From contig CAYVTG010000001.1 of NCBI GenBank assembly GCA_964454575.1, forward strand, positions 1 through 44,158: 44,158 nucleotides of DNA, given 5' to 3'. Source of the DNA: an uncultured Thermoplasmata archaeon (GTDB lineage Archaea > Thermoplasmatota > Thermoplasmata > Halarchaeoplasmatales > Halarchaeoplasmataceae). The notes beneath the pieces were generated by a model that saw nothing but the letters and a program-made list of their open reading frames with translations, did not search any database and had not been told where the DNA came from. Both the position numbers and the translations under genes were made by a program. Positions within the stretch are counted from its first letter, which is position 1, and every line of letters begins with the position of its first letter. Below, piece after piece: positions 6,830 to 42,294 of this stretch.

Positions 6830-6835
6830 TTGTAG

Positions 6836-7942: not shown

Positions 7943-7995
7943 TTTCGTTAACGCGGCCAAAATATTTATATCCCTAATAGGTATACGAGGTATAG

Positions 7996-8238
7996 GTGAA
8001 GCATATGGCGATAGGATTCGTACTGATAAAGACCGCACCCGTAACCGAACGGGAAGTATACAAGGTATTAGAGAAGCTACCCGAAGTCGAAGAGGTTTAC
8101 TCTTTGTTCGGGGAATTCGATATCATCGCCAAGATACATGCTGAGAACTTCAACACCCTTGGCCAGGTGGTCGTAGATCATATACGTTCCATCGACGGCG
8201 TCGAGGATACGAAGACATTGACTGGAATAGAATTTTAG
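7996..8238 (+). CDS. Stand-alone Lrp/AsnC-type ligand-binding (RAM) domain protein
   Basis: AIGFVLIKTAPVTEREVYKVLEKLPEVEEVYSLFGEFDIIAKIHAENFNTLGQVV...GVEDTKTL is the typical AsnC_trans_reg fold pattern. There is a GTG at 7996 and an ATG at 8005. Confidence 0.8.
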   Translation: MKHMAIGFVLIKTAPVTEREVYKVLEKLPEVEEVYSLFGEFDIIAKIHAENFNTLGQVVVDHIRSIDGVEDTKTLTGIEF

Positions 8239-18562: not shown

Positions 18563-19192
18563 ATGCCTCGGGATACTCGAAACGGGGAAGAAGGTGATCC
18601 AAAGCGTTTTTGGCAGAGCAAGACCGATGAAAGGTCTCAGTTCATATTTATCTCATTCGTTCTCGTGATAATATTTATGTTGATCGTGGTGATCAGTATG
18701 GGGGCATACGGTTATTATTCTTGGCTGGGATGGAAAGAAGGACCGCAGATACGTGTCGACGAAGGTTTGTTCGAATTCAGTATGAACGATACTCATCCCG
18801 AGGCGGATATCACCATACATCTGACACTTATCAATCAGGGTGAGAAGGAGAGCGGCAGCGTCAGGCTGGAATGGTTGGTGATGGAAAGTACAGATGCAAA
18901 GGATAATATCGTCTTCGAAAGCGGTTCGCTCATGTTCCAACCGATCACTTCGGAATCCACACGGAAAGAAACCTTCGATGTGAGTCTGCCCCAAGGCGAT
19001 TACGTGATAGCCTACCGAGTATATGATGATCAACTATTCAGCTACGAAGCCAGACAGAACATATTCGTCCGCTCCGATGATGTAAGCAGCGAGTCACCGG
19101 AGACCATATCAGTACCCGAATTCCCCGTGCTGATGGTTCCTATTCTAATTATTTTGTTGATATTTGCCTTATATAGGAGGAGATATAGTTGA
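18563..19192 (+). CDS. Paralog 1 of a three-gene family: N-terminal signal anchor, Ig/CARDB-like ectodomain, C-terminal PEFP/TM/RRRYS signal
   Basis: Contains KRFW, a TM helix, ITIHLTLINQGEKESGSVRLEWLVM, and the tail SVPEFPVLMVPILIILLIFALYRRRYS. A TATA-like box lies at 18531-18539. Confidence 0.8.
   Translation: MPRDTRNGEEGDPKRFWQSKTDERSQFIFISFVLVIIFMLIVVISMGAYGYYSWLGWKEGPQIRVDEGLFEFSMNDTHPEADITIHLTLINQGEKESGSVRLEWLVMESTDAKDNIVFESGSLMFQPITSESTRKETFDVSLPQGDYVIAYRVYDDQLFSYEARQNIFVRSDDVSSESPETISVPEFPVLMVPILIILLIFALYRRRYS
19115..19189 (+). other. C-terminal tripartite signal PEFP / hydrophobic helix / RRRYS (PEF-CTERM-like)
   Basis: The PEFP codons are at 19115-19126, followed by VLMVPILIILLIFALY and RRRYS. 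Confidence 0.7.
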
Positions 19193-19809
19193 CTGAAAAA
19201 GATACTAAAAGATACTGGGAGCGCAGAGAAGGCGGAAAATCATCCGCACTGATGATGGTATTCATCATAACGATAATCGTTATGCTTGTGGTAGTCACGG
19301 TGATGGCCGGCTACGGATACGCAAAATATCAGGAATGGGCTCGACAGCCACAGATCCATGTTGAACGAAGTTTGTTCGAATTCCACGATGACGTATATGA
19401 AGAACAGGTAAATATCACCGCACATGTGTATCTTAGAAATCGGGGTGACAAGGACACGGGGCCGCTCGAACTCGAATGGTTGATAATGCCTGCGGATCGT
19501 GCAGCCGATAACATATACATATTCAAAGGTCGAAAAGAGGTGGAGTCCATGAAGGTAGATGAAACTATGGAAATCACATTTGATCTCAGGCTGCCGACGG
19601 GTGAGTACAGGATAGCTTTTAGAACCTACGAAGAAGATTACTTCGGATATGAAGGTCGGCAGTCGTTAACCGTGGGTGAGGAAGATGTGGAGGAACGGGC
19701 CGGAGCGGACGATGAAAAATGGACCGAAGAAGCTGTGCCCTCTCTTTCATTCTTTTTCGTGATTTTGATCACGCTAATAACAACCATCATATGGAGGAAA
19801 CGCAGATGA
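19189..19809 (+). CDS. Paralog 2: N-terminal signal anchor, Ig/CARDB-like ectodomain, C-terminal TM/WRKRR tail
   Basis: The TTG start overlaps the upstream stop (TTGA). Contains KRYW, a TM helix, ITAHVYLRNRGDKDTGPLELEWLIM, and the tail AVPSLSFFFVILITLITTIIWRKRR. Confidence 0.78.
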   Translation: MTEKDTKRYWERREGGKSSALMMVFIITIIVMLVVVTVMAGYGYAKYQEWARQPQIHVERSLFEFHDDVYEEQVNITAHVYLRNRGDKDTGPLELEWLIMPADRAADNIYIFKGRKEVESMKVDETMEITFDLRLPTGEYRIAFRTYEEDYFGYEGRQSLTVGEEDVEERAGADDEKWTEEAVPSLSFFFVILITLITTIIWRKRR

Positions 19810-29151: not shown

Positions 29152-31269
29152 TTACTCGGGAGGTTCCAATTCTTCACCGCAGTGAGGGCATTCGGTAGAA
29201 TCTGCGGGGATGACTTCTACACAATTTGGGCAAAGGCCCTTGTCTACACCATACATGGCCGGTGTTTCTTCTTCGGATCTATCTTCCTCTAAATCATCAT
29301 CCGCCATCTCTTCGTCGGATCCATCTTCTTCTTGAGAAGATGTCCTTTTCTTATATATATATATGATTGACAGCACGACGATGATCAACAGAATTAGCAG
29401 CAGGAAAAAGAGCCAGCTCCATATGCCCTCCCCATCTCCGGTCAATCCGTTATCCCCATTATCTCCATTATCATCGTCATCGGTTTGGGGAAATTCTGCG
29501 TATATTGTTAGTTCCTGGCTGTTGGCAGAATTGCCTCTGACATCCTCTGCGGATACCCACGCCCTTATTTCTCCCTCTATCATCACTTCCGAGTATTCCA
29601 ACTCGAAGACGTATATACCGGACTCCGTTTCGTTCATCTCGAATCGTTCGTCGGTTAGATTGAATCCGTCGATATGCAGATAAACGGTATCAAGATCGTC
29701 ATCGGGATCCGTCACGTTAGCAGTGAAGTATAACCGATTCCCGTCTTCCAAGGTAAAATTAGTCTCGGTGGAAATATTAAGTGTACTAGTTCCCACGCCC
29801 GCATGTGTGATCTCCGGCGGTCTCTCGATGAGAGTTATAGTCAAACCATCGCTATCGGCCGTGAACCCTTCTTCATCGGTGGCTCGTATCGAGAGTTCCC
29901 ACGAACTGGCAGACATGTTCCTGTCGTATAAGATGGTGGCACTGTATATATCCGAAGATATCTCCTCCATCTCGATCTCTTCATCGGCGTATTCCAGGAT
30001 GACTTCCACCAGATCTCCGTCGGGGTCGACCACTTCTGCGTTAACGGTAAAGTTGGCTCCGTCCCTTAGTATCATGTCTGCAGCACCGTTTCCTTCGTCC
30101 GTATCACTGTATATCGATGTTTGAAGTATCTGAGGTGCTTCCTTTCCAAGATAGGTATAGAATATATCGTACTGGAAAGTGAGATTCTCAGATGCCGAAG
30201 GATGTCTTTCTTCCCAAACTATCTGGTCTTGGTATATCGCAGGGAACCTGGCCACGACTCCCTCGGTTTCTCCCACATCGACCTTTGCTACGCGTGTTTT
30301 TGTGTTCTCCAAAATATCGTAGATCCATATGGCATCATGAACATGATCAACCCCTTCATAATATCTCTCGAAGAAGATTATCCTACCTCCGTATATCTCT
30401 GGAGCCTCTTCGCTGGATGGTTCAGCGGAAACAACAGTTTTGTTTTCGCCTAGACGCTTCATGTATATGTTGTTGTTCTTTCCTTCGTATTCTATCCATG
30501 TGGCAGTATTTTTATATATACTGGGATTACGTTGATGTATGGGTTCCTCGATAAAGGGAGATTCTTCTTCAGTATTGAGATCATACATGTATATATCTGA
30601 AACCATCGTTTCGTAAACTCCTGTCCAGTAGTTACGATAATCTGTCCAGACGATCGTGTCTTCGTAAATATCAGGGTTTTCTTTTCTATGTCTCCCATCC
30701 GAGATCACAATTGTTTCATCTTCTTGTATATCGTACATGTATATGTCACCGAACATATTATCTGTGTAATCTCCCCAGACTATCTTCTCTCCGTGTATCT
30801 TTGGCGATATTTGGTCGCTTCCATGGGTGGTTACACGGTGTTCCGTCATGGTGTTGAGGTCTATGTAGTAAATATCCGCATTACCGTGGCGGTAATCTTC
30901 CCAAACAACGTAATTTTCCCATATACGCGGTTTGATCTGGGCGGATGGATCATCGGTCAATTGTATTATATCTCCGGTTGAGAGATCATGCATATATATA
31001 TCTGAATTTCTGTAGTACGGGCTGCCGTACCCGCCAAGAGGATCGTTTCTATAATCCTCCCAAACTATCCTGTTACCCCATATATCTGCTCTCATCTGCC
31101 AGTTTTCATCTGCTGTGATGTTTGCATATTGATCGGAATTTGCGGTCATATCTCGCGGTACACCACGGCCTAACTCCGATGCGGTGCAAACTACACTTGA
31201 TACCAGCATGATAAACAATGTTATAACCGTGACGACCTTTCCTATGTGCATGATACTCAAAGATTCCAC
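29152..31269 (-). CDS. Surface protein: signal peptide, beta-propeller built from IVWxDYR...DIYmyDL repeats, two Ig-like domains, DNG linker, TM helix, acidic cytoplasmic tail, zinc ribbon
   Basis: About eight repeats such as NRIVWEDYRNDP...SDIYMHDLSTG, NYVVWEDYRHGNADIYYIDLNT, EKIVWGDYTDNMFGDIYMYDIQ and DTIVWTDYRNYW...SDIYMYDLNT. From memory this is the archaeal beta-propeller repeat seen in methanogen surface proteins. TM helix IWSWLFFLLLILLIIVVLSIIYIY. Tail CPNC-x10-CPHC. Confidence 0.85.
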   Translation of the reverse strand: MESLSIMHIGKVVTVITLFIMLVSSVVCTASELGRGVPRDMTANSDQYANITADENWQMRADIWGNRIVWEDYRNDPLGGYGSPYYRNSDIYMHDLSTGDIIQLTDDPSAQIKPRIWENYVVWEDYRHGNADIYYIDLNTMTEHRVTTHGSDQISPKIHGEKIVWGDYTDNMFGDIYMYDIQEDETIVISDGRHRKENPDIYEDTIVWTDYRNYWTGVYETMVSDIYMYDLNTEEESPFIEEPIHQRNPSIYKNTATWIEYEGKNNNIYMKRLGENKTVVSAEPSSEEAPEIYGGRIIFFERYYEGVDHVHDAIWIYDILENTKTRVAKVDVGETEGVVARFPAIYQDQIVWEERHPSASENLTFQYDIFYTYLGKEAPQILQTSIYSDTDEGNGAADMILRDGANFTVNAEVVDPDGDLVEVILEYADEEIEMEEISSDIYSATILYDRNMSASSWELSIRATDEEGFTADSDGLTITLIERPPEITHAGVGTSTLNISTETNFTLEDGNRLYFTANVTDPDDDLDTVYLHIDGFNLTDERFEMNETESGIYVFELEYSEVMIEGEIRAWVSAEDVRGNSANSQELTIYAEFPQTDDDDNGDNGDNGLTGDGEGIWSWLFFLLLILLIIVVLSIIYIYKKRTSSQEEDGSDEEMADDDLEEDRSEEETPAMYGVDKGLCPNCVEVIPADSTECPHCGEELEPPE
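29179..29232 (-). other. Cytoplasmic C-terminal zinc ribbon (C-x2-C-x10-C-x2-C) after a D/E-rich tail
   Basis: GLCPNCVEVIPADSTECPHCGEELEPPE, read directly from the minus strand. Confidence 0.7.
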
Positions 31270-31390
31270 CGGTTATTAAGTATTTTTCGTAGAAATCTAT
31301 TCAAGTTCTGTGTCATAAAGTTTATATTAGAAAACCCATCTACTTGAGGTAAGATACGAAAAATTAACATACATATTGGAGGAAATAATA

Positions 31391-33658
31391 ATGAACAAGA
31401 ACATGAAAAGAGGTATGTGTCTTCTGCTTATCAGCGCACTGGTACTGACCAGTTTTGTTGGTGTGATAGCAGGAAATATACTACCGCACGAAAGATGGGG
31501 AAACGCAGACATCGATGGCGTGGATGCCGCCGATAATCTGGAGATCACCTCATGGATATACGGTGTGGAATACGGCTCCAACATAACATATAATGGAGAC
31601 GGATCATTTTCGGTATTCACCGAAGGTGATGATGAAACCGATACCACCTGCAAATACGGTGGAGTGAACGGAGATACGATATTCTACATGATAGACAACA
31701 CGGGCGATGGGAAACCGGACCTGATAGCTAACGAAGTGAGCACATTTGACTCGGGCGCGAGCGAGAACGCCAATCTGAACTTCGCTACTACCGGTCAGCC
31801 TGATATGAACATCAAGATAAACGAGATCGTACTTCAGCCCGGAGATGCGGGTAACCAGTACGTTTACCTCTACGTCCCCGTTGGTATTACATTAGCCGAA
31901 TGGACGCTTGAGACCCATGCGGGAGTTATCGGTACGCTCGATGTATTGACAACCGCTGCACATCCAACCGACGGAGAATTACTCTATGTTGATCTCGGCG
32001 GAGTTCCATTGGGAACCGGCCCTGGACATCTTATGCTCTCATGGCAGGCATCCGGCGGTATCGCAAATAATGCTCTGATCACACTTGACCGAGTAGAGTA
32101 TGGAAATCAGGATACATCTCCTGAAAACACCACACACGTTGATTACCCCGGTGTACCCGGCGCGGGCGAAGGACTCGTACGTGTCACAAAAGGCGTCGAC
32201 ACAGATGACAGCTCGGTTGACTTCACCATCGCTTCGGAGACCGGCAGACCCGTAACATTGACAACGGGCAGCACGGCGAATGGTTCGGTAACCACACCCG
32301 GTGAAGGAACATTTAACTATTTACAGTACGAATTAGTAGCAATCGAAGCGACCGCTGATGCGAACTATCACTTCGTCAACTGGACTGGTGATGTTGGTAC
32401 GATAACCGACGTTAACGCAGCATCGACCACGATCAACATGACCGCTTCTTACTCGATAACAGCTAACTTCGCGATAAACACACACACACTTACCACGACC
32501 AGCACGGTCGGCGGAAATGTAACGGATCCTGGTGAAGGAACGTTCACATATGACTACGGAACGGTTGTAAACATAACTGCAACACCGGACACAGATTATC
32601 ACTTCGTCAACTGGACTGGCGATGTTGGCACCATAGCCGACGTCAACGCAGCATCGACCACGATCAACATGACTGGAGATTATACGATCCAAGCCAACTT
32701 TGATCCAGATGCGGTTCTCAATACTGTAACCGGCATATGGGTAGAGAAGTCCGGCGCAGACCTGATCGTCCACTGGGACGATGTAGGCGCACCCGGATAC
32801 AACGTATACCACTCTGCAGACAAGTATGCTGTAATGCCTTGGACTCTCGTCGGAGATAATGTAGCAACCAATTATTTCACACACGCTGGCGCACTCGGCG
32901 GCGAAGACTACTACTACGTCCGAGCAACCGACGGCGAAGCCGAAGGAAACATGTCCGGCATGGGCTACTGCGTAGATGTAGAGTTCATCTATCACAGTGC
33001 ATCTCAACAGAGATACTACACCTCAGTACCCGCGGGCTTCCCAGACATGAACGGCGACGCTTCGCTGACGGCCAGTGACCTTGTGATCCACATAGAAGGT
33101 GGCACAGGCGACGGTACGAACACGAAGATCAGCAGGATAGGTAAGTGGGACGCTACGATAGGTGGATATAGCGAGAATTTCTACTACCAAGAAACTTTCG
33201 GTGGAAATGGATGGACCGGCGGTACCGACTTCACCATAGCACCCGGCGATGGTATAGTGTTCTTCGTCGAATCAACATTCACGTGGCAGGTCAATGCGAC
33301 AGACACGCAGGACGATATCGGATTCATCTATCACTCAGCTGCTCAACAGAGATACTACCTATCGGTACCATACACAGTGATGGACTACAACGGCGACGGT
33401 TCTTTGACGGCCAGCGATCTTGTTGAAGCAATAGAAGGTGGCACAGGCGACGGTACGAACACAAAGATCAGTAGGATTGGTAAGTGGGACGCTACGATAG
33501 GTGGATATAGCGAGAATTTCTACTACCAAGAAACTTTCGGTGGAAATGGATGGACCGGCGGTTCAGACTTTACCATAGCACCCGGAGACGGTATAGTGTT
33601 CTTCGTCGAATCGGACTTCACGTGGAACCCGATACTGATAATCCCACCGCAGCCGTGA
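31391..33658 (+). CDS. Secreted multidomain protein: signal peptide, N-terminal beta-rich region, two B-repeat-like units, Fn3-like domain, two copies of a 113-aa dockerin-loop module; no membrane anchor
   Basis: The ATG at 31391 is preceded by GGAGG (31379-31383). Signal peptide MNKNMKRGMCLLLISALVLTSFVGVIAG. Domains are listed as separate repeat features. It ends in the proline linker IIPPQP. Confidence 0.85.
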   Translation: MNKNMKRGMCLLLISALVLTSFVGVIAGNILPHERWGNADIDGVDAADNLEITSWIYGVEYGSNITYNGDGSFSVFTEGDDETDTTCKYGGVNGDTIFYMIDNTGDGKPDLIANEVSTFDSGASENANLNFATTGQPDMNIKINEIVLQPGDAGNQYVYLYVPVGITLAEWTLETHAGVIGTLDVLTTAAHPTDGELLYVDLGGVPLGTGPGHLMLSWQASGGIANNALITLDRVEYGNQDTSPENTTHVDYPGVPGAGEGLVRVTKGVDTDDSSVDFTIASETGRPVTLTTGSTANGSVTTPGEGTFNYLQYELVAIEATADANYHFVNWTGDVGTITDVNAASTTINMTASYSITANFAINTHTLTTTSTVGGNVTDPGEGTFTYDYGTVVNITATPDTDYHFVNWTGDVGTIADVNAASTTINMTGDYTIQANFDPDAVLNTVTGIWVEKSGADLIVHWDDVGAPGYNVYHSADKYAVMPWTLVGDNVATNYFTHAGALGGEDYYYVRATDGEAEGNMSGMGYCVDVEFIYHSASQQRYYTSVPAGFPDMNGDASLTASDLVIHIEGGTGDGTNTKISRIGKWDATIGGYSENFYYQETFGGNGWTGGTDFTIAPGDGIVFFVESTFTWQVNATDTQDDIGFIYHSAAQQRYYLSVPYTVMDYNGDGSLTASDLVEAIEGGTGDGTNTKISRIGKWDATIGGYSENFYYQETFGGNGWTGGSDFTIAPGDGIVFFVESDFTWNPILIIPPQP
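32278..32701 (+). repeat. Tandem 77-codon repeat encoding YHFVNWTGDVGT...TINMT...ANF units (InlB B-repeat-like fold suspected)
   Basis: NYHFVNWTGDVGTITDVNAASTTINMTASYSITANF and DYHFVNWTGDVGTIADVNAASTTINMTGDYTIQANF lie 231 nt apart. The DNA is also very similar between the two units. Confidence 0.75.
32978..33655 (+). repeat. Two tandem copies (339-nt period) of an unrecognised 113-aa module with a dockerin/EF-hand-like Ca-binding loop
   Basis: VEFIYHSASQQRYYTSVPAGFPDMNGDASLTASDLVIHIEGGTGDGTNTKISRIGKWDATIGGYSENFYYQETFGGNGWTGGTDFTIAPGDGIVFFVESTFTW, followed by a second copy. An 84-nt run is perfectly identical between them (33140-33223 = 33479-33562). Confidence 0.9.
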
Positions 33659-33709
33659 GGTGCAACGAAAAAGATATATACATAAAGATAAGATAAGGAG
33701 ACGATAAAA

Positions 33710-34654
33710 ATGAAAAAGATACTAACGATCGCGGTGGTGCTGGGCATGGCTTTAGTCATGCTCTCCGGCGCCACTGCGGGATACGGAGAAACATTGCAAG
33801 GATCTACACAAGATGCCTACGATGGAACCAAACTGGATGGAGGAAATTGTACAGTAGTACATGTTCAGGACCCTGGAGATACACCGGTTTACAGCGGTAG
33901 TTTTGCTACTGGCGGTTTTGGCGATTACAGCTGGGATGCGACGGTTCTAACAGAGGCTGGTTGGGTCACTGTACCAAATACAGCCGGCGAAGACCTATAC
34001 TTCATCAAAGAAGTAGGTAACTACATCGCAGCAACACACGCCGACGTGACGGAAACAACCTCGATCAAAGCATCACAATACGACATGGTTGATCGCTTGG
34101 AACCAATACCAACACCTGAAGCAAATGCTGTTGGCTCAGATTATATCAATCTGACTATACCCGCACCCAAATATACGGATGCTTCACTAAGTGTCGGTGG
34201 TTCAACTGGACAGGGTACTTTTGATGTAGTTACAAGCTACGCTGTATTTTACACCGACGATGCTGGTGCAACATGGACTTACGCAGGAAACGCAGAACAT
34301 TTCGTTGACGGCCCAGATAACCCATTGGAACCTAGTTACGATGACGCTATTAACCCCGACGGTATCGATACTGGCCACTATACATTCAACACATCTACAG
34401 ACGGCGGCCTAACCCTTAACCCCGAAACAACCTACAATTTTGCTGTACGTGTCAACATCGGCCCAGCCGGAACAGGATACGGCGGATGGAACGGTGGTGT
34501 GGGCTCGTATACAACCTGGACAATGGGAACATCATCAGCCGACATAACAACTGACCCAGCATCCGAATTCGGAATCGGTATGATGGTACCTGTTGTAGCT
34601 ATAATCGGTATGTTCGTTGCTTTCACCGTCTACAGACGGAAGAAGTACGAGTAG
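33710..34654 (+). CDS. Surface protein with signal peptide, Fn3-like region and a C-terminal SEFG/TM/RRKKYE tripartite sorting signal; likely archaeosortase cargo
   Basis: Signal peptide MKKILTIAVVLGMALVMLSGATAG. Tail DPASEFGIGMMVPVVAIIGMFVAFTVYRRKKYE. AAGGAG lies at 33694-33699. Oligo-T tracts follow the stop. Confidence 0.85.
   Translation: MKKILTIAVVLGMALVMLSGATAGYGETLQGSTQDAYDGTKLDGGNCTVVHVQDPGDTPVYSGSFATGGFGDYSWDATVLTEAGWVTVPNTAGEDLYFIKEVGNYIAATHADVTETTSIKASQYDMVDRLEPIPTPEANAVGSDYINLTIPAPKYTDASLSVGGSTGQGTFDVVTSYAVFYTDDAGATWTYAGNAEHFVDGPDNPLEPSYDDAINPDGIDTGHYTFNTSTDGGLTLNPETTYNFAVRVNIGPAGTGYGGWNGGVGSYTTWTMGTSSADITTDPASEFGIGMMVPVVAIIGMFVAFTVYRRKKYE
34562..34651 (+). other. C-terminal tripartite signal SEFG / hydrophobic helix / RRKKYE (PEF-CTERM-like)
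   Basis: The SEFG codons are at 34562-34573, followed by IGMMVPVVAIIGMFVAFTVY and RRKKYE. Confidence 0.7.
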
Positions 34655-34683
34655 CTGAACTGGTAAAACCCAAACAAAACCCC

Positions 34684-34703
34684 TTTCTTTTTTTAATTTT
34701 TTT
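34684..34703 (+). terminator. Oligo-T tracts (T3-C-T7-AA-T7) 30 nt after the stop of the SEF-tailed surface protein gene
   Basis: Archaeal termination commonly uses oligo-T runs, and two T7 runs sit here. The tract is also the 5' part of repeat copy 1. Confidence 0.45.
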
Positions 34704-34756
34704 GTTCTAAATTAAAAAATAAGCAGAATCCGTCATGATTGTGCGGCATCTTTCAT
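34689..34756 (+). repeat. 68-bp direct repeat, copy 1 (T-tracts, TATA-like TAAATTAAAA, then ATGATTGTGCGGCAT)
   Basis: 63 of 68 positions are identical to 34921-34988 by my position-by-position count. The offset is 232 nt. Confidence 0.9.
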
Positions 34757-34920
34757 CGTTGCGATGAAAGGTAAGTGGAACCGGCTCAGGTTGCGCGGCA
34801 TTTTTTTATTATTTTTTTGTTTTTTCAAATAATAAAATAATTAGAATTTTCAATTCTGATACATTTTTTTCTATTTTTTTAAATAGAAAAAAGCATCGAA
34901 AATCTTCGATTTTGGATAAG

Positions 34921-34988
34921 TTTTTTAATTTTTTTGTTCTAAATTAAAAGATAAGCAGAATCAGTTATGATTGCGCGGCATTTTTCAT
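34921..34988 (+). repeat. 68-bp direct repeat, copy 2, immediately upstream of the archaeosortase gene
   Basis: Same count as above. The 15-mer TTGCGCGGCATTTTT (34971-34985) also recurs exactly at 34791-34805. Confidence 0.9.
34941..34952 (+). promoter_or_regulatory. TATA-like box of repeat copy 2; candidate archaeosortase promoter
   Basis: AAATTAAAAGAT lies about 20-27 nt upstream of ATG 34967 and TTG 34971. This is the same geometry as the TATA-to-start spacing seen at 15723, 15399 and 18563. Confidence 0.4.
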
Positions 34989-35045
34989 TTTTCACACACT
35001 CTTCTACACAAACTATTTTTAGGCACCTACCGCTTATTGTTATAT

Positions 35046-36410
35046 ATGAGTAAACTCAAAACCTGGCGTTTCTTCGCCGGCTTGATCATATTCTTCGCCG
35101 GCCTTGACGTTACACTTTTACTGAGCCATTTGTCACGGTTCATCGGAGTTGCCCTGCTTTTCGCCGGTCTGTTACTGATGATAACTGCCCATCCTAAGCT
35201 GTCTAAGCGTACCAAAGATGCACTACCGGACAAGTTCGTTTCCTTGTTCTCTCCAGAAACACTGTCCAAACTCAGATATCTCGTATTTTTTGTGCTGAGC
35301 GTGTTTACGGTCATACTATTCTTTCGATCTCTTAACACTTTGATCCCACTTATCGTGTTACTAGTAGCACCCGAATTAGCCATGCGAGCGCTAAAAAAAG
35401 AAGATACAGATAACACCCTGTTATCGATGGAGTTCCAGATGTTCGTTTTCGTCTCCACAGTTTTGTACATCAACTTCGATGCGGTATTCGGCTATCGAGA
35501 TCCGCCGGCGATATTCCCGCTGGTGTTCCTTGTAGCCGCTTGGATCATCGAAGGCATCTATCTGTTCGGACGTTTAGCACCTGCAAAGCCCATCGAGTCA
35601 GTAAAGCAACCTATTGAAGAAGAAGGCCCGTACCTCTCGGAACGTTTTATCCACATGATAACCTTCAACGGCAGGTTCAAACCGTTTATACCGGTAGTCG
35701 GCGCTGCTATGATAGGAATGGTGTTCGTGTTCAACCTCTTCATAACAGGCGGACTTTCCCTAGGTTCTCACGACGGTGCGACTCTACTTCTCGGAGTTGC
35801 GTTGTTAGCATATAATCGTATACCGGACAAGTACTCCTTCGAACGTGATTTCACCATGCTTTTTCTTGCATTTCTTTTCCTTATCTTAGTACTACCCATA
35901 ACTATCCTCGCATACACATCCGGGCCTATGACGGAGGCCAGCAATTCACCGGTCATCTACCATATGCTGGCACGACCGACGGCGTGGTTACTCCGTTCAG
36001 TAGGTATCCCAGCACGCGCTGCGATAAAAGGCGAATGGGTCATAATCGGCATGCCCATGGCAGCTAACAGCTTTTACATCGACTACGTATATCGGGAAGT
36101 ACTGATAGGTCTTTCCTGCACAGGTCTATACTCGGTGACCATCTTCATCTCGGCCTTCCTAGCATTCGTCATGGTGCACTTCAAGAAGATGACATTTCAA
36201 CTCTCTCTATTCATGGTATTAGGGATAATCGCTTCATGGATCGCCAACATACTACGTATGTTCGTCATAATGCTCATGGGATATCATTACGGTTCGGAGG
36301 CCATGATGTGGACACACAACAACGCAGGTATCTTCATATTCATGGTTTGGATAGCTCTATTCTGGGGCGTGATGTTCAAATTCTTCGATATACCCGTAGG
36401 TAGGGATTAA
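35046..36410 (+). CDS. Archaeosortase (exosortase/archaeosortase-family transpeptidase), with an N-terminal extension of about 150 aa
   Basis: Polytopic membrane protein carrying the three family hallmarks in order: LIGLSCTGLYS (Cys codon 36117-36119), IANILRMFV (Arg codon 36255-36257) and WTHNNAG (His codon 36315-36317). I prefer the ATG at 35046 (MSKLKTWRFFAG) to the TTG at 34971 in the ORF track. Confidence 0.85.
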   Translation: MSKLKTWRFFAGLIIFFAGLDVTLLLSHLSRFIGVALLFAGLLLMITAHPKLSKRTKDALPDKFVSLFSPETLSKLRYLVFFVLSVFTVILFFRSLNTLIPLIVLLVAPELAMRALKKEDTDNTLLSMEFQMFVFVSTVLYINFDAVFGYRDPPAIFPLVFLVAAWIIEGIYLFGRLAPAKPIESVKQPIEEEGPYLSERFIHMITFNGRFKPFIPVVGAAMIGMVFVFNLFITGGLSLGSHDGATLLLGVALLAYNRIPDKYSFERDFTMLFLAFLFLILVLPITILAYTSGPMTEASNSPVIYHMLARPTAWLLRSVGIPARAAIKGEWVIIGMPMAANSFYIDYVYREVLIGLSCTGLYSVTIFISAFLAFVMVHFKKMTFQLSLFMVLGIIASWIANILRMFVIMLMGYHYGSEAMMWTHNNAGIFIFMVWIALFWGVMFKFFDIPVGRD

Positions 36411-36438
36411 TCTTTTAGCGTAGTGTTATCATATCCGT

Positions 36439-37404
36439 ATGATGCTTGAAAGGTATCAACGGATACTCGAAAAAGGATTAGAGCCGTACTATCTCAAGGC
36501 CAAGAAAGTTAATGTGACGCCATTGTTCGATAAGACCGTGGAAGAACTGTGGAAACTTCACGATACACAGTTGGAAGATAGCATACCTTCCTTGGAACTC
36601 AAATCTGAGCTAGCGCACCGCATGTTAGATCACTGCGAACTGTGCGAGTGGAGGTGCGGAGTCAACAGGAACAGGGGTGAATTGGGAGTATGTGGTGTTT
36701 TCGCCGAACCGAAGGTATCACCCGTCTTTCTGCATTTCGGTGAAGAGGACGTGTTGGTCCCTTCACACACAGTTTTCTTCGCCGGCTGCAATTTTAACTG
36801 TATCTACTGCCAGAACTACGATATAAGCCAGCGGCCGGACAGCGGAAGTTACGTTCGACCGGAAGTACTATCAGAGAGATTGAACCACGGCGGCGGCCGT
36901 AATGTCAACTGGGTTGGCGGCGACCCAACGCCGAACATAGCGTACATCACCGAAGTGCTAAGGCACATGACCGCACCGCTTCCGCAGATATGGAATTCCA
37001 ACATGTATCTAACGGAAGAGGGAATGAAACTTTCGGCGAAACTCATGGACGTTTATCTTACCGATTTCAAGTACGGTAACGATGACTGTGCGCAGCGCTT
37101 GTCGGGTGTAAGGGATTATACCGAGATAGTCAAACGTAATCACTTGTTGGCGGAGAAAACCGGCGACATCATCATCCGTCATCTAGTACTGCCGGGGCAC
37201 ATCGACTGCTGCACTCGGCCGTTGCTACAATGGATAGATAACAACTTGGATTCACCCTATGTGAACATAATGAAACAGTACCGACCGGTTTATCGTGTAT
37301 CGGAATGTTCAGAGATAGATAGGCATCTGAGTAGCGAAGAGAACAGAACTATCGACGAACTGCGGGACGAATACGCTAATCTATCGCTATCTAACCGGTC
37401 GTAA
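36439..37404 (+). CDS. Radical SAM protein, PflX-like (pyruvate formate-lyase activase-related, COG1313 type)
   Basis: The radical SAM motif is GCNFNCIYCQNYD (Cys codons 36787-36789, 36799-36801 and 36808-36810). An upstream Cys cluster reads HCELCEWRCGVNRNRGELGVCG. Also contains NWVGGDPTP. It starts 28 nt after the sortase stop. Confidence 0.85.
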   Translation: MMLERYQRILEKGLEPYYLKAKKVNVTPLFDKTVEELWKLHDTQLEDSIPSLELKSELAHRMLDHCELCEWRCGVNRNRGELGVCGVFAEPKVSPVFLHFGEEDVLVPSHTVFFAGCNFNCIYCQNYDISQRPDSGSYVRPEVLSERLNHGGGRNVNWVGGDPTPNIAYITEVLRHMTAPLPQIWNSNMYLTEEGMKLSAKLMDVYLTDFKYGNDDCAQRLSGVRDYTEIVKRNHLLAEKTGDIIIRHLVLPGHIDCCTRPLLQWIDNNLDSPYVNIMKQYRPVYRVSECSEIDRHLSSEENRTIDELRDEYANLSLSNRS

Positions 37405-37437
37405 AATACATATAATACCTGTATTTACGCCGGCTTC

Positions 37438-40263
37438 ATGCAAGCAAAAAAGACGTTGATAATGTTCGTACTGGCAATGTTACTGACCGCAGGTATCTCC
37501 GATATAATGGGGGGTAGCGAAACGAGTTCTTTTGATATCCCTGCTCCCGAAGGTCTGAGCATCGAAAAGACCGACACCGACGTGATACTGAGTTGGGATG
37601 AGATCGATGGCGTGGACGGTTACAAGATATATCATACCACGGACCTTTATGGCTCATTTCCCGAGGATTGGGAATACTATAACACAACATCTCTACAATG
37701 GATCCACGACGATGTTCTAACCGGCACCGAAGATCATTTCTACATGGTGCGCGGCTTGAACGGTGTTGTGGAAGGCGAACTCTCGGAGGTAGTTTTCTGT
37801 GCGGCTGTAGAGTTCATATACCACAGTGCATCCCAACGAAAATACTACTTATCGGTACCATCCGACTTCCCAGACATGAACGGCGACGATAACTTGACGG
37901 CCAGCGACCTTGTGATCCACATCGAAGGGCACACGGAAGATGGTTCCAACACGAAGATAAGCCACGTGGTGAAGTGGGATGCGGAGATCGGTACTTATTC
38001 CGAGCAATACTACTACGTTGAAGACCCGTTCAGTGACAACGGTTGGAATGGCGGTACGGACTTTCCCATCTACCCCGGAGACGGCATCGGCTTCTTCGTG
38101 GAGTCCAACTTTACCTGGTATGTTAATGCGACGGAGACCGGAGACCCCATCGAATTCGTATATTATGGTGAAGCCAACAACAAATATTATCTCTCGGTAC
38201 CGTACACCGTGACGGACTACAACTACGACGGACAACTGACGTCCAGAGACTTAGTAGTGGCCATCGAAGGGGACACAGGTGAGGGAACGAACACGAAGAT
38301 AAGCAAGGTGATGAAGTGGGATGCGGAGCTCGGAGGATATTCAGAGCGGTTTTACTATGAAGAAGATCCGTTCAGCGGCAGTGGATGGTATGGAACGGAC
38401 TTCCCCATATCCCCCGGCGACGGCATCGGCTTCTTCGTCGAGTCCAATTTTACCTGGAATCCCGAACTTATCGATCTACAACCGCCGGCAGTGATCAACA
38501 TAACTCCGGGCACGTCGATCATACCTTTAGATACCGAAATAACCCTGAGCTTCTCCCGGGATATGAATCGGACATCGGTGGAGGCAGCCTTGGATTGGTC
38601 CGACATGACCGTTGAATTAGAGTGGGAGGACGACCGCACGCTCACTATAACACCACAACAGCCGTTGACGCCGGGTAAGGAACACAACCTAACCATCACC
38701 CCGTCAGCCAAAGACACCGTCAGAAACGCCTTGGACGGCAGCGGAGACGGCATCCCCGGGGACGTCTTTGTATATACCTTCACCGTCGAGCTACCGCCGG
38801 TCATCGAACACGCACCGCCGGAGAGATGGCACTTGGAGGATAATATCACGCTCGAAACCGAAGCGACCGACGACATAGAGTTGGATAGTGTTTCGCTGGA
38901 ATACAGTTATGGTGAAAACTACGGTAACGTGACTATGGATAACATAGAAAACGATACATTCACTCTCACACTAACTGCACCGGGCACGGAGTGCATACTG
39001 AACTACACCATATGGGGCACCGATAGTAGCGGGCTGGTCTCTTCGGAGAACTACACGCTTCCCATACTCAACCTTACTGCTCCTGTGGTAGTAAACATAT
39101 GGCAGGAACACGAGGTCATGCCGATGAACGGAGTACTGCAGTTAGAATTCTCCAAACCCATGGACCTCGATATATACTCTGCACTGACTGTGACACCGGA
39201 TGCAGAGTTCGAATTGTTCTGGGCGAGCACAAAACATTTGAATATTCAGTTTTACAATCTCACTGAAGAAACGGAATATACGATCACTCTAAATTCCAAT
39301 CTAACCACAGATGTTAATGGGATCTCCATGGAAGAGGGCGTATCTTACAGTTTTATATCTCAAGGACGTCCGACTATCAGTTTATCCGATACCTCAGAAG
39401 AGATATCAAAATGCTCGGAAATAGTGGTTGAAGCAGAGATACTATCCGATATGGAGATAGCAGAAGTTAATCTATATTACAACGACACGAACGGCGAAGA
39501 ACACTCTCTCCTAGCGAATTACAGCGAAGGTTTTTGGACAGCTACCATACCGAGCCAAAATCTAAGCGGTGAGATACGTTACATGTTCGAAGCTATAGAC
39601 ATCAGCGGATTGAAGAGCTATACGGACATCCACAGCATAGTGGTGACCAACCCAACGGTCATCCATCCCTGTCAAGATATCGACGCAGAGGCGGCTACAC
39701 CTTTCGAGTTCACAGTAAGGGTGACCAATCCCACGGGAGTACGAATGGTGATACTGCACTACAACGACGGAGAATCTACAGAGCTAACACTCAGGGATGG
39801 CAGCCCTGCAGATGGCAACTGGAGTACTCAATTGACCGTCGACGAACAGATATTCGAATATCAGTTAGAAGTGGTGGACTGGGACGGAGAAAGCATAGTC
39901 CTACCTAACACACCACTTTCCATGGAGGTCGGCGAGCAGCAGTCATCGGCATTCGGTAATATCTGGTTACTGCTTCTTATCGCAGTGGCCTGCGCTGCCG
40001 GTATCGGTACCATTGCGTGGAAAAAGAAGGGAAGCACCGTTAGCGAAGATGTGCCGGAAGCAGCCGCAGCACCGGTCACGGAATCACCCGAAGAACAAGT
40101 TAATAATACCACATGTACTGTATGCTTCGGTACCATAGAAGGCACCCCGCATAGATGCAGCGGCTGTGGAAATGTATATCATAGAAACTGCATCCAAGAA
40201 CTCGGGGAATGTCCGGTTTGTGGTACTGATCCTTTAAAAGGTGGTAATGATGAATCACCGTGA
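37438..40263 (+). CDS. Giant surface protein: signal peptide, Fn3-like domain, two 113-aa dockerin-loop modules, several Ig-like (SbsA/Big-type) domains, TM helix, cytoplasmic C4HC3 zinc finger
   Basis: Signal peptide MQAKKTLIMFVLAMLLTAGIS. The cassette is homologous to the C-terminus of the 31391 gene. There are about 20 N-x-S/T sequons in the ectodomain. TM helix NIWLLLLIAVACAAGIGTIAW, followed by KKKG. It starts 33 nt after the radical SAM stop. Confidence 0.88.
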   Translation: MQAKKTLIMFVLAMLLTAGISDIMGGSETSSFDIPAPEGLSIEKTDTDVILSWDEIDGVDGYKIYHTTDLYGSFPEDWEYYNTTSLQWIHDDVLTGTEDHFYMVRGLNGVVEGELSEVVFCAAVEFIYHSASQRKYYLSVPSDFPDMNGDDNLTASDLVIHIEGHTEDGSNTKISHVVKWDAEIGTYSEQYYYVEDPFSDNGWNGGTDFPIYPGDGIGFFVESNFTWYVNATETGDPIEFVYYGEANNKYYLSVPYTVTDYNYDGQLTSRDLVVAIEGDTGEGTNTKISKVMKWDAELGGYSERFYYEEDPFSGSGWYGTDFPISPGDGIGFFVESNFTWNPELIDLQPPAVINITPGTSIIPLDTEITLSFSRDMNRTSVEAALDWSDMTVELEWEDDRTLTITPQQPLTPGKEHNLTITPSAKDTVRNALDGSGDGIPGDVFVYTFTVELPPVIEHAPPERWHLEDNITLETEATDDIELDSVSLEYSYGENYGNVTMDNIENDTFTLTLTAPGTECILNYTIWGTDSSGLVSSENYTLPILNLTAPVVVNIWQEHEVMPMNGVLQLEFSKPMDLDIYSALTVTPDAEFELFWASTKHLNIQFYNLTEETEYTITLNSNLTTDVNGISMEEGVSYSFISQGRPTISLSDTSEEISKCSEIVVEAEILSDMEIAEVNLYYNDTNGEEHSLLANYSEGFWTATIPSQNLSGEIRYMFEAIDISGLKSYTDIHSIVVTNPTVIHPCQDIDAEAATPFEFTVRVTNPTGVRMVILHYNDGESTELTLRDGSPADGNWSTQLTVDEQIFEYQLEVVDWDGESIVLPNTPLSMEVGEQQSSAFGNIWLLLLIAVACAAGIGTIAWKKKGSTVSEDVPEAAAAPVTESPEEQVNNTTCTVCFGTIEGTPHRCSGCGNVYHRNCIQELGECPVCGTDPLKGGNDESP
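37807..38490 (+). repeat. Two tandem copies of the same 113-aa dockerin-loop module found at 32978-33655
   Basis: VEFIYHSASQRKYYLSVPSDFPDMNGDDNLTASDLVIHIEGHTEDGSNTKISHVVKWDAEIGTYSEQYYY...PGDGIGFFVESNFTW and IEFVYYGEANNKYYLSVPYTVTDYNYDGQLTSRDLVVAIEG.... The two genes share identical DNA runs, for example CTTCCCAGACATGAACGGCGACG. Confidence 0.9.
40114..40221 (+). other. Cytoplasmic C4HC3 zinc finger (PHD/RING-variant-like spacing)
   Basis: CTVCFGTIEGTPHRCSGCGNVYHRNCIQELGECPVCG gives C-x2-C-x10-C-x2-C-x4-H-x2-C-x6-C-x2-C. Confidence 0.6.
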
Positions 40264-40312: not shown

Positions 40313-40510
40313 ATGGCGACGACTATACGGATAGATGTAGAAACCAGAGAAAATCTGAAGAGGTTTGGTCACAAAGGTGAATCATACGACGACATCATCG
40401 AACGATTGATGGGTTATTGCGAGGAATTCGATATCGAAGAGTTGATCGAAGCAAAATGGCTACGCCTTCAGAAAGAAAAGGACCAATACATCCCATTGGA
40501 TGAGATTTAG
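40313..40510 (+). CDS. Putative antitoxin (small acidic protein, possible ribbon-helix-helix N-terminus)
   Basis: 65 aa, MATTIRIDVETRENLKRFGHKGESYDDIIERLM.... Its stop codon directly abuts the start codon of the RelE-like gene. Confidence 0.6.
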   Translation: MATTIRIDVETRENLKRFGHKGESYDDIIERLMGYCEEFDIEELIEAKWLRLQKEKDQYIPLDEI

Positions 40511-40822
40511 ATGGATATCGTTGTACACCCGCGAGTTCAAAAATACATCGAAAAAAGTGGGGAAAAAGAAAGGTTTGTACAATCTTTAAAATTACTCTCT
40601 GCAGATCCATATAACTCTAGAAGTGGTGTTGACATAAAAAATGCCGTGCAATCTGAACCGATTCCACTTATTTTTCATCTTTCCCAAGAGATGAAAAAAC
40701 TCAAAGGGAAACGCCATGATATGTACAGATTAAGAGTGGGTCCCCACAGATTCGAATATATTGTAGAGGATGAAAAGATATGGGTCGACGATGCTTTTTA
40801 CAGAGAAAGAGGATATCGATGA
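40511..40822 (+). CDS. RelE/ParE-superfamily toxin-like protein
   Basis: Contains KKLKGKRHDMYRLRVGPHRFEYIVEDEKIWVDDAFYRERGY. This is the ...KLkG...yRlRvGdyRiiY...R..aY pattern of RelE/StbE toxins. Confidence 0.72.
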   Translation: MDIVVHPRVQKYIEKSGEKERFVQSLKLLSADPYNSRSGVDIKNAVQSEPIPLIFHLSQEMKKLKGKRHDMYRLRVGPHRFEYIVEDEKIWVDDAFYRERGYR

Positions 40823-40890: not shown

Positions 40891-42294
40891 ATGAAAAAAC
40901 ACGAAGATTTCAGCGAGTGGTACAACGAAGCGATAGAGAAGGCCGAACTCACGGATAAACGATATCCGGTAAAGGGTATGAACATATGGAAGCCCTACGG
41001 CTGGAAATTGATGCGACTTATAGACGAAGAAACAAGAAAGTTGGTTGAAGAGACAGGTCATCAGGAAGTCAAGTTTCCACTGCTCATCCCCGAAGAGGAA
41101 TTCAAAAAGGAAGCTGACCACATAAAAGGTTTCGATGAACAGGTATTCTGGGTTTCCCATGCGGGCAAGAACGAGCTGGACATACCTTTACTACTCAGAC
41201 CGACCAGCGAGACGGCTATGTATCCCATATTCGATCTGTGGGTGCGTTCGCACGCTGACTTACCTTTGAAGATTCATCAGTTCGTCAATGTTTTCAGATA
41301 TGAAACAAAGCAGACCAGAGCATTCATGCGTATGCGCGAGATCCACTTCTTCGAAGCACACACCTGTCACGCCAGTAACGACGAGGCAGAGGAACAGATA
41401 AAGGAAGACTTCGAGATAATGGACGCACTGACAAAAAAGCTGTGTCTCCCGTACCTTAAGCTGCAGCGCACGGATTGGGACAAGTTCCCTGGTGCGGATT
41501 ACAGCGTGGGCGCAGATGCATTCATGCCGACCGGAAAACTACTGCAGATTGCCGGCATACATCAGTACAAGACCAACTTCGCGAAGGCCTACGATATCAC
41601 CTTCGAAGATGAAAGCGGAGACCACAAGCACGTTTACCAGACCACATACGGCATGTCGGAACGTTTGATAGGTGCCATCGCAGCCATACACGGCGACGAT
41701 AATGGTGTCGTGATACCTCCGGAAATAGCTCCGATACAGGTACGTATCATACCCATAGCTTACGGTGAAGACACAGAACTGAAAGAATTCTGTGAAAACA
41801 CAAAGAACAAACTCATGGAAAACGGATTCCGAGCGGATATCGACGACAGAGAAGACATAAGGCCCGGCAGCAAGTTCTTCGACTCGGAACAGATGGGTAT
41901 CCCTTTGAGGTTGGATATAGGTAGAAAGGAGATGGAAAAAAATACTATCACCGTAGTAAGGAGAGATACCGGTCAAAAGGATACCATACCAGCCGAAGAA
42001 CTCATCAAACGATTAAAAGATACCTCAGACGCCATGCAAAAAGAACTGTACCAGCGAGCTAAGGATGAACTAGACAGCAACATCATCGATGCCAAGGACT
42101 TCGAAGATATGACCGAACAGAAGATATATCGAACGGGCTGGTGTGGAGAATTGGAATGCGGTCAGTATATAGAAGAAGTAGCAGACAGGGATATCCTAGG
42201 CTCTCGTTACGGAGAATCAGACACCTACAACGGACGATGTCTTTCCTGCGGTAAACCTACGGATAAAGCGGTATATCTGTGTAAGACCCATTAA
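40891..42294 (+). CDS. proS: Prolyl-tRNA synthetase, archaeal/eukaryotic type
   Basis: Contains FSEWYNEAIEKAELTDKRYPVKGMNIWKPYGW, LLRPTSET, FRYETKQTRAFMRMREIHFFEAHT, and a C-terminal Zn-binding region ending in Y-x-C-K-T-H. Confidence 0.93.
   Translation: MKKHEDFSEWYNEAIEKAELTDKRYPVKGMNIWKPYGWKLMRLIDEETRKLVEETGHQEVKFPLLIPEEEFKKEADHIKGFDEQVFWVSHAGKNELDIPLLLRPTSETAMYPIFDLWVRSHADLPLKIHQFVNVFRYETKQTRAFMRMREIHFFEAHTCHASNDEAEEQIKEDFEIMDALTKKLCLPYLKLQRTDWDKFPGADYSVGADAFMPTGKLLQIAGIHQYKTNFAKAYDITFEDESGDHKHVYQTTYGMSERLIGAIAAIHGDDNGVVIPPEIAPIQVRIIPIAYGEDTELKEFCENTKNKLMENGFRADIDDREDIRPGSKFFDSEQMGIPLRLDIGRKEMEKNTITVVRRDTGQKDTIPAEELIKRLKDTSDAMQKELYQRAKDELDSNIIDAKDFEDMTEQKIYRTGWCGELECGQYIEEVADRDILGSRYGESDTYNGRCLSCGKPTDKAVYLCKTH

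Follow-up and report, generated by a model that had tools for sequence, protein, structure and literature searches.

A probable lineage-specific surface-gene island around a divergent ArtC-like archaeosortase in halophilic Thermoplasmata

The locus described here occupies positions 29152-40263 of a 44,158-nt stretch of DNA (the window) from an uncultured Thermoplasmata archaeon. Six open reading frames (ORFs) lie within it, coding for a beta-propeller surface protein on the reverse strand and, on the forward strand, a secreted protein of 760 aa, a 314-aa secreted protein with a tail that resembles a sorting signal, a predicted archaeosortase, a soluble radical SAM protein and a 941-aa membrane surface protein, which we refer to as cass941 (Table 1). 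A first reading of the sequence, called the original prediction below, had proposed that these genes form a dedicated surface-display system, in which the sortase is coupled to the radical SAM enzyme and to the two large proteins that share a cassette. The ORF map and the alignments bore out what it had described at the locus: the six ORFs, their order and the gaps between them were all as given, and so were the shared cassette, the tail signal and the repeats in the spacer upstream of the sortase. The interpretation that we favour is a different one, and is centred on the sortase and the tailed protein encoded next to it.

That the locus encodes an archaeosortase was upheld by two models, with the sortase scoring above the cut-off for the exosortase/archaeosortase superfamily both in TIGR04178 (50.6 bits, cut-off 23) and in PF09721 (42.6 bits, cut-off 25.7). 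Classification with the subfamily models, which the original prediction had called for, gave a ranking but not an assignment. Archaeosortase C (ArtC, TIGR03762) was the best-scoring named subfamily, but at 47.8 bits the match is below the cut-off of 100, and none of the archaeosortase subfamily cut-offs of NCBIfam was reached. ArtC was also the best named subfamily for nine relatives of the sortase, again with scores under the cut-off (41-77 bits). The protein is polytopic, with multiple hydrophobic helices seen both in the hydropathy profile and in the AlphaFold2 (AF2) model. Three residues, Cys358 (36117-36119), Arg404 (36255-36257) and His424 (36315-36317), are invariant in the 21 relatives that were aligned; in the Haloferax enzyme ArtA, Cys173 and Arg214 are critical (PMC9263693). 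The start of the gene was placed at the ATG at 35046, where all of the orthologues align, whereas the mechanically called ORF opens at a TTG at 34971. All 62 homologues of the sortase that were found are from metagenome-assembled genomes of Thermoplasmata, the nearest named relative being Candidatus Haladaptatiplasma of the order Halarchaeoplasmatales. A scan of genome contigs with the single window protein gave no match, no sequence relative was present in the PDB and a fold search of the AF2 model against the PDB returned no meaningful match. If the interpretation put forward here is right, the sortase would represent a divergent, unnamed ArtC-like subfamily used by halophilic Thermoplasmata.

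The 314-aa protein encoded upstream of the sortase ends ...PASEFGIGMMVPVVAIIGMFVAFTVYRRKKYE. This tail is tripartite, with an SEF-G motif, a transmembrane (TM) helix at residues 289-307 and a basic RRKKYE cluster at the extreme C-terminus, and so has the motif, helix and basic cluster that mark a PEF-CTERM signal, a combination that is kept in six orthologous loci. When searched against NCBIfam, the tail gave TIGR03024, the PEF-CTERM model, as its second match (11.0 bits, cut-off 23) after GG_III-CTERM (13.2 bits). For comparison, the window proteins were searched by tblastn and with hidden Markov models (HMMs) against the loci of the 80 best radical SAM homologues, 27 of them from the same order and 53 more distant; L001 and L003 are on the same contigs as L013 and L010, and L005 is a near-identical relative of L017. 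The tails of the orthologues encoded directly upstream of the sortase read VPEFGPG...YRRKK in L003, L011 and L012, TPEFGPG in L023 and SEFGPG in L001. TIGR03024 was the top NCBIfam match for each of the five orthologue tails tested, with 16.2-22.3 bits, just below the cut-off of 23. The same position upstream of the sortase is taken in L005 by a different protein of 1137 aa, with the tail APEFPIG...YRKKK. The SEF tail of the window is a local variant of a PEF-CTERM-like tail, PEF-CTERM being the signal to whose recognition ArtC has been assigned (PMC5244752). The pairing of the archaeosortase with an adjoining cargo gene that carries a tail signal, as originally proposed, is thus real and is kept in related species.

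The two genes might still have come together by chance, with the sortase being inactive or unrelated to its tailed neighbour and the tail acting as a plain membrane anchor. The scores of tails and sortase, all under the curated family cut-offs, leave room for this, but the catalytic residues are invariant, and both the adjacency of cargo and sortase and the PEF motif have been kept in six species in which the rest of the cargo is 27-55% identical. We regard such a chance juxtaposition as extremely improbable.

The closest known parallel is the archaeosortase C/PEF-CTERM system (TIGR03762 with TIGR03024), reportedly described by Haft et al. in 2012. The likeness extends to the polytopic exosortase-family enzyme with its conserved cysteine and arginine, to the P-E-F motif followed by a TM helix and a basic tail, and to the cargo gene adjoining that of the sortase. 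The window family differs in staying under the curated cut-offs, with the enzymes at 41-77 bits against 100 and the tails at 11-22.3 bits against 23. It also differs in the motif, which is usually PEFGPG, and SEFG in the window, and in the enzyme, which has about 120 extra residues, forming four helices, between the N-terminal hairpin and the core. A second parallel is the experimentally characterised ArtA/PGF-CTERM system of Haloferax volcanii (PMC9263693, PMC7157517), where a tripartite C-terminal signal is cleaved and a lipid attached, the mechanism predicted here as well, and where the cysteine and the arginine are essential; ArtA belongs to a different subfamily and acts on a different motif (PGF). 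By analogy with ArtA, the cargo would be exported through its signal peptide and held in the membrane by the helix of its (P/S)EF-G/TM/basic tail. The sortase would then cleave it at the motif, using Cys358, Arg404 and His424, and the new C-terminus would be re-anchored, probably to a lipid.

Two to three more tails of the (P/D)EF-TM-basic type are found elsewhere in the window, on genes 15-35 kb from the sortase. The most canonical is that of the protein encoded at 18563-19192, which ends ...SVPEFPVLMVPILIILLIFALYRRRYS (…VPEFP…YRRRYS) and scores 18.6 bits with TIGR03024. The protein encoded at 36-1823 ends ...EDEFPMIILVIVSVVIFVSILIYRRYRS (…EDEFP…YRRYRS); it is a PLD-like nuclease with a PKD domain and is predicted to be a surface-anchored nuclease. 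The product of 19189-19809 is a weaker case, with a tail beginning VPSLSFF... and no TIGR03024 match. TIGR03024 was the best or second-best model for three EF tails of the window; every tail scored between 11 and 22.3 bits, with the cut-off at 23. Since PEF-like tails are present so far from the sortase, the enzyme would appear to be a general sorting enzyme with one adjoining substrate rather than one dedicated to the giant proteins that flank it, and the dedicated character given to the system by the original prediction is doubtful. The sortase probably has further PEF-tailed substrates whose genes lie in other parts of the genome. A general sortase with one adjacent substrate gene looks like the ArtC/PEF-CTERM pattern that is already known. 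Two of the related loci in which the sortase core is absent, L025 (1741-3015, reverse strand) and L031 (1552-2823, reverse strand), encode proteins of about 424 aa with PGF-like tails (…TPGFELS…KKRKKRS and …IPGFGSL…), which hints that these lineages may use an ArtA/PGF-type system instead.

The original prediction had also taken the radical SAM protein to be a partner of the sortase. Sortases of this family come in a long form of 451-488 aa, to which the window protein belongs, and in short forms of about 307-414 aa. A long-form sortase is encoded directly upstream of the radical SAM gene in eight species loci (L010-L015, L017 and L023). Eleven sister species (L018, L019, L022, L024, L025 and L027-L032) have at that position only a membrane protein of about 180 aa, which corresponds to the N-terminal module of the long form, and L020, L021, L026 and probably also L016 have neither the sortase nor the module. 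By comparison, prolyl-tRNA synthetase (ProRS) is encoded downstream of the radical SAM gene in 25 of the clade's 27 loci (63-76% identity by tblastn), and in the other two, L011 and L012, the contig ends 1.3-2.9 kb downstream. Beyond ProRS, a convergent EF2 gene is present in 21 of these 25 loci. The adjacency of sortase and radical SAM gene is thus confined to one order-level clade, which also shares the synteny of radical SAM gene, ProRS and EF2, and the sister species keep the radical SAM-ProRS pair without the sortase core. The co-occurrence of sortase and radical SAM gene beyond inherited synteny, for which the original prediction had asked, was not seen: among the short-form relatives of the sortase (39-47% identity over the core) a radical SAM neighbour is missing in all five that were examined, and none of the 53 more distant radical SAM loci has a sortase, a module or ProRS nearby. 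The neighbours of the short forms are large surface proteins of CARDB/FixG_C type or glycosylation genes.

Sequence divergence separates the genes of the locus in the same way. Identity to the window by tblastn is 57-73% for the radical SAM protein, in step with the 63-76% of ProRS, and the surface genes are far more diverged, at 44-55% for the sortase, 27-55% for the cargo and 33-47% for cass941. The radical SAM gene probably has its position here because the block of radical SAM, ProRS, EF2, S7 and S12 genes is ancestral in the order, with surface genes having built up to either side. An overlap of 11-14 nt between the cass941 orthologue and the ProRS start codon is seen in L001 (14916-14926) and L003 (15260-15273), so that a surface-protein gene and a tRNA synthetase gene are likewise packed as in an operon at this locus. 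It had been argued that the sortase, radical SAM and cass941 genes are packed tightly enough to be a single operon. The gaps, of 28 nt from sortase to radical SAM gene and 33 nt from there to cass941, are real, but such spacing is ordinary in the window: further upstream, genes with unrelated housekeeping roles (purE, guaA, a TctA transporter, an M29 peptidase and others) that share a strand are set 6-65 nt apart or overlap. The radical SAM gene may well be co-transcribed with the sortase gene, and most likely it stands outside the sorting mechanism.

The genes upstream of the distant radical SAM homologues vary by lineage. In other Thermoplasmata, an AMMECR1-like gene is found twice, overlapping the start of the radical SAM gene in L051 (5522-6136) and L063 (5502-6161); a gene for an MBL-fold protein precedes the homologue in six loci (L065, L070, L083, L085, L087 and L088); and an 88-codon ORF is conserved among the loci from Theionarchaea. 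The AMMECR1-like and MBL-fold neighbours are reminiscent of the AmmeMemoRadiSam grouping, although the radical SAM protein scores below the cut-off of the corresponding model, TIGR04337.

Membership of the radical SAM superfamily is clear (PF04055, 52.5 bits, cut-off 29.5). The cluster-binding motif CxxxCxxC is present as CNFNCIYC at residues 117-124 (36787-36810), with Cys117, Cys121 and Cys124 invariant, and four further cysteines (66, 69, 73 and 85) are invariant as well. We take the protein to belong to the family known as PflX. It shares the radical SAM core with CxxxCxxC and the extra conserved N-terminal cysteines with proteins that resemble the activase of pyruvate formate lyase (PFL) and are annotated as 'putative pyruvate formate lyase activating enzyme', but unlike these it stays under every NCBIfam activase cut-off, the best score being 39.7 bits with TIGR02493 (PFLA), whose cut-off is 231.75. 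The AmmeMemoRadiSam model TIGR04337 gave 34.8 bits (cut-off 220). The only sequence relatives in the PDB are PFL-activating enzymes (best E 9e-6). No glycyl-radical enzyme was among the Pfam matches of the scanned window ORFs or of the called genes of the related loci, although no model aimed at these enzymes was searched. Homologues numbered 4551; those listed are 49-73% identical and span Thermoplasmatota, Theionarchaea, Methanomassiliicoccales, Altiarchaeota (Altiarchaeales), Hadarchaeota and others. With one genome scanned per species, at least 587 species proved to carry a relative.

With this spread and the inherited synteny, the circumstance that the original prediction had itself named as fatal to the coupling, a widely conserved gene placed here by chance, largely turns out to apply. 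The radical SAM gene encodes a PflX-type enzyme that is widely conserved in archaea, and is probably a passenger rather than a partner of the sortase. The literature searched on PflX, COG1313 and archaeosortases yielded no description of an archaeosortase coupled to a radical SAM enzyme.

The long-form sortases owe their length to about 120 residues, forming four more helices, that follow an N-terminal helical hairpin common to both forms. In the AF2 model of the window sortase (pLDDT 83.9) helices cover residues 6-177, and a disordered linker at 184-190 leads into the core. Residues 1 to about 175 align collinearly with the stand-alone proteins of about 180 aa found in the sister species, such as that at 7365-7943 of L019, and the latter stop where the charged linker of the sortase starts. 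The tblastn E-values of these matches are 1.6e-4 to 5.5e-15, an HMM of the module scored 204-235 bits on the stand-alone ORFs, and common to the module forms are the motifs (Y/F)(Y/F)P(R/T)LPY(F/L)QT, clearest among the long forms in P0021, and FQ(L/I)F(L/I)FFSTF. The family is a narrow one, with nine representative clusters in 1.84 billion proteins: one fused, five stand-alone of about 180 aa and three short fragments. No named family corresponds to it. A precedent for an archaeosortase N-terminal membrane domain outside a sortase is found in the proteins with an archaeosortase H N-terminal-like domain (NF041739), a model with which the module gave no significant match.

The radical SAM proteins were used to trace the history of the module. 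All but one of the module-only loci fell in a single clade of the neighbour-joining tree (95% bootstrap), which also holds L026, and the remaining one, L024, grouped with L032 inside the module-only clade. This clade is nested in another, with 100% support, that contains the fused locus L017 and two loci having neither sortase nor module. The fused loci are paraphyletic at the base of the tree, where the deep nodes are weakly supported. Read most simply, the tree has the fused form as ancestral, with the catalytic core lost later and the module kept. The reverse, a recent fusion of a stand-alone module to a short sortase, was considered and set aside, as the tree favours core loss, with the same weakness at the deep nodes. 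The stand-alone genes are under purifying selection, with ratios of nonsynonymous to synonymous divergence (dN/dS) of 0.09-0.23 and dS near saturation, and among the loci examined they were found only directly upstream of the radical SAM gene.

Taken together, we consider it likely that the locus is a lineage-specific island of surface genes around an ArtC-like archaeosortase and its cargo, lying inside an ancestral radical SAM-ProRS-EF2 block of a halophilic Thermoplasmata chromosome. Several observations weigh against this. In all of the long-form loci the sortase and radical SAM genes run in the same direction and are no more than 8-44 nt apart; the sortase and the tails all score under the curated ArtC and PEF-CTERM cut-offs; the housekeeping status of the radical SAM gene is interpreted from its distribution only; and, once the core had been lost, the module kept its place immediately before the radical SAM gene, as would also be seen in a functional pair. 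A module that is kept and selected beside the radical SAM gene gives room for a functional link between the two, in which the soluble enzyme would dock at the membrane on the module and, in the long-form sortases, would thereby be brought close to the sorting site, so that the cargo or its lipid anchor is modified during sorting. Besides the purifying selection and the retention after core loss, such a pair would account for the place of the module, fused or stand-alone, which in 19 of some 23 species loci that are informative lies directly upstream of the enzyme gene on the same strand, 8-90 nt away, and for the restriction of so narrow a family to this position in the loci studied here. However, the radical SAM family has a much broader distribution than the module and exists unchanged, with every invariant residue in place, where the module is absent; three or four species have lost the module and retained the radical SAM gene and ProRS; and the short-form sortases work without the extra helices or a radical SAM neighbour. 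The adjacency of ProRS is also at least as well conserved, so that synteny at this evolutionary depth does not discriminate. For these reasons a functional pair of module and enzyme would seem unlikely. The stricter form of the idea, that the module of about 175 residues is a dedicated docking partner of the PflX-type enzyme and couples radical chemistry to C-terminal sorting in the long-form sortase, we hold to be distinctly unlikely.

The island, then, is the reading that we prefer, and what is new about it lies in the sortase subfamily and its separable N-terminal module. If it is right, an unnamed ArtC-like subfamily with PEFG-type cargo joins the known sorting systems, which is of value for annotation and is unsurprising. 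The locus also carries a caution, that a functional link does not follow from short gaps and from adjacency conserved inside a single order. An interaction of the module with the radical SAM enzyme would offer an initial clue to what a large, uncharacterised family of radical SAM proteins does. If the docking role were confirmed, this would make the sortase the first of the archaeosortases to be tied to a radical SAM enzyme, and PflX would gain its first functional handle.

Table 1. Features of the locus and of the window mentioned in the text
Feature	Position	Strand	Evidence
PLD-like nuclease/PKD protein, further candidate cargo	36-1823	+	EF tail
209-aa protein, further candidate cargo, outside the six-ORF locus	18563-19192	+	PEF tail
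Beta-propeller/zinc-ribbon type I membrane surface protein, 705 aa	29152-31269	-	TIGR04275, hydropathy
Secreted cassette protein, 760 aa, with signal peptide, anchorless	31376-33658	+	Pfam, hydropathy
PEF-CTERM-like-tailed secreted protein, 314 aa, predicted sortase substrate	33710-34654	+	Tail sequence
AT-rich spacer, 391 nt	34655-35045		Sequence, repeats
Sortase gene, whole	35046-36410	+	PF09721, TIGR04178
Sortase N-terminal membrane module, residues 1 to about 175, about 6 helices	35046-35570	+	tblastn, HMM, AF2
Archaeosortase catalytic core, residues about 196-454	35631-36410	+	PF09721, TIGR04178
PflX-type soluble radical SAM protein, 321 aa	36439-37404	+	PF04055, motif CNFNCIYC
Type I membrane surface protein, 941 aa (cass941)	37438-40263	+	PF13205, TM helix, finger
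Prolyl-tRNA synthetase (ProRS)	40891-42294	+	tblastn, Pfam annotation of orthologues

Three large proteins are encoded around the sortase. In the 705-aa protein, a signal peptide is accompanied by beta-propeller repeats of Methanosarcina type (TIGR04275, 166.7 bits, cut-off 85) and Ig-like domains. A TM helix spans residues 620-638, and the acidic tail on its cytoplasmic side ends in a zinc ribbon, seen as weak Zn_Ribbon/UPF0547 matches; orthologues are present in L001, L003 and L012. The 760-aa protein has a signal peptide, two Flg_new_2 repeats, which are like the InlB B-repeat (PF18998, 98.2 bits), an fn3-like segment and two modules of 113 aa (32978-33316 and 33317-33655). Cass941 likewise has a signal peptide and an fn3-like segment, together with Big_5/Ig domains (PF13205, 59.4 bits), a TM helix at residues 842-860 and an acidic tail, and its two modules are at 37807-38148 and 38149-38490. 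The cassette common to the 760-aa protein and cass941 thus consists of the fn3-like segment and two modules of 113-114 aa, the four module copies being 58-79% identical as protein and 65-72% identical as DNA between the two genes. Within the 760-aa gene the copies at 33092-33286 and 33431-33625 are 94% identical over 195 nt of DNA, which suggests a recent duplication or gene conversion.

Each cassette module has one invariant loop of calcium-binding type, D-x-N-x-D-G-x-L-T-x-x-D-L, which would fit an EF-hand or a dockerin-type calcium site, and one module copy alone gave sub-threshold EF-hand matches. The original prediction had called this a dockerin loop. The module has no Pfam family, there was no Dockerin_1 match even at E = 10, and the AF2 model of the module (pLDDT 65.6, moderate) found no fold match in the PDB and matched neither dockerin nor cohesin. 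What it has in common with the modules of the cohesin-dockerin system is the loop DxNxDGxxxxxDL followed by a helix; it differs from dockerin in carrying one loop in a beta-rich module of 113 aa, where dockerin has a duplicated 22-residue segment, and no cohesin partner was identified. The module is an unclassified domain with one EF-hand-like loop and not a dockerin, and the earlier label is not supported.

In L001 and L003, both large proteins have orthologues with two modules; in L012 this holds for the orthologue of the 760-aa protein, and in L014, L015, L023 and L035 for that of cass941. The modules were not found in the lineage of L005 and L017, where sortase and radical SAM gene are present. 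A metagenome scan with the module gave a single locus, L092, a high-GC contig of 9 kb in which 6156-8042 encodes a 628-aa protein with the fn3 and two-module cassette (31% identity) and in which there is no sortase or radical SAM gene. These results bear on the display machine originally proposed, in which sortase, radical SAM enzyme and cassette proteins would act as one and the anchorless cassette protein would be held at the surface by its calcium-loop modules in the manner of cohesin and dockerin. The cassette pair does flank the sortase in several species (L001, L003, L012, L014, L015, L023 and L035), and the loop of the module, with the weak EF-hand match of one copy, is of a suitable type. 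The proposal nevertheless has to contend with the missing Dockerin_1 match, the single loop in place of two, the AF2 model without dockerin or cohesin match, the lack of an identified cohesin-like partner and the dispersal of PEF-like cargo across the window, and the cohesin-dockerin-like part is without support because the modules are absent from the L005/L017 lineage and the cassette occurs on the unrelated, sortase-free L092. Such a machine is very unlikely. Under the reading preferred here, the sortase does not act on its three large neighbours, which would be ordinary surface proteins: two of them have a TM helix of their own and a zinc finger on the cytoplasmic side, and the third is secreted and anchorless.

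The finger of cass941, CT[IV]CFG...C..CG..YH..C....GECP[VI]CG (about 40114-40224), is at its C-terminus and is kept in six orthologues. Prok-RING_1 (PF14446) was the best of many weak RING- or PHD-like matches, with 21.4 bits against a cut-off of 29.1. A similar RING-like finger is present at the cytoplasmic C-terminus of four distant short-form sortases (P0046, P0058, P0060 and P0062; pairwise BLASTP E 5e-7 and 6e-6). In the manner of a Rosetta stone this gives a weak hint that such fingers may act together with a sortase on the cytoplasmic side.

The spacer between the cargo and sortase genes has runs of T at its start, directly after the stop codon of the cargo gene. It contains a 68-nt direct repeat, with copies at 34689-34756 and 34921-34988 that are 93% identical, and also an incomplete third copy. 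The 22-nt core of this repeat was found at the two spacer copies and nowhere else. Between them, a segment of about 110 nt (34803-34918) shows strong conservation with the L003/L010 spacer, the sortases of the two species sharing only 52% identity, and in L003 (9668-9893) it forms a 113-nt unit repeated 2.2 times. Two palindromes with arms of 6 nt and a centre of 3 nt lie in the segment, AGAATT-TTC-AATTCT and AAAATC-TTC-GATTTT (34843-34857 and 34899-34913), and these are the only matches in the window to ARAATYNNNRATTYT, with 0.13 expected by chance. Folded as RNA, the segment scored better than shuffled controls (z = -3.95); no Rfam family matches the spacer. Going by these features, the conserved segment probably serves as a pair of operators or encodes a small RNA, and the spacer as a whole is probably a terminator followed by a duplicated, regulated promoter or operator region. 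The cargo and sortase genes would in that case be transcribed as separate units. In L005 a MarR-like protein, a candidate regulator, is encoded upstream of the sortase.

Between cass941 and ProRS, the window has a pair of small overlapping genes (40313-40510 and 40511-40822) that is not present in L001 and L003. The product of the first is DUF7557/VapB-like (39.9 bits) and that of the second is weakly ParE-like, and the two are probably a toxin-antitoxin pair.

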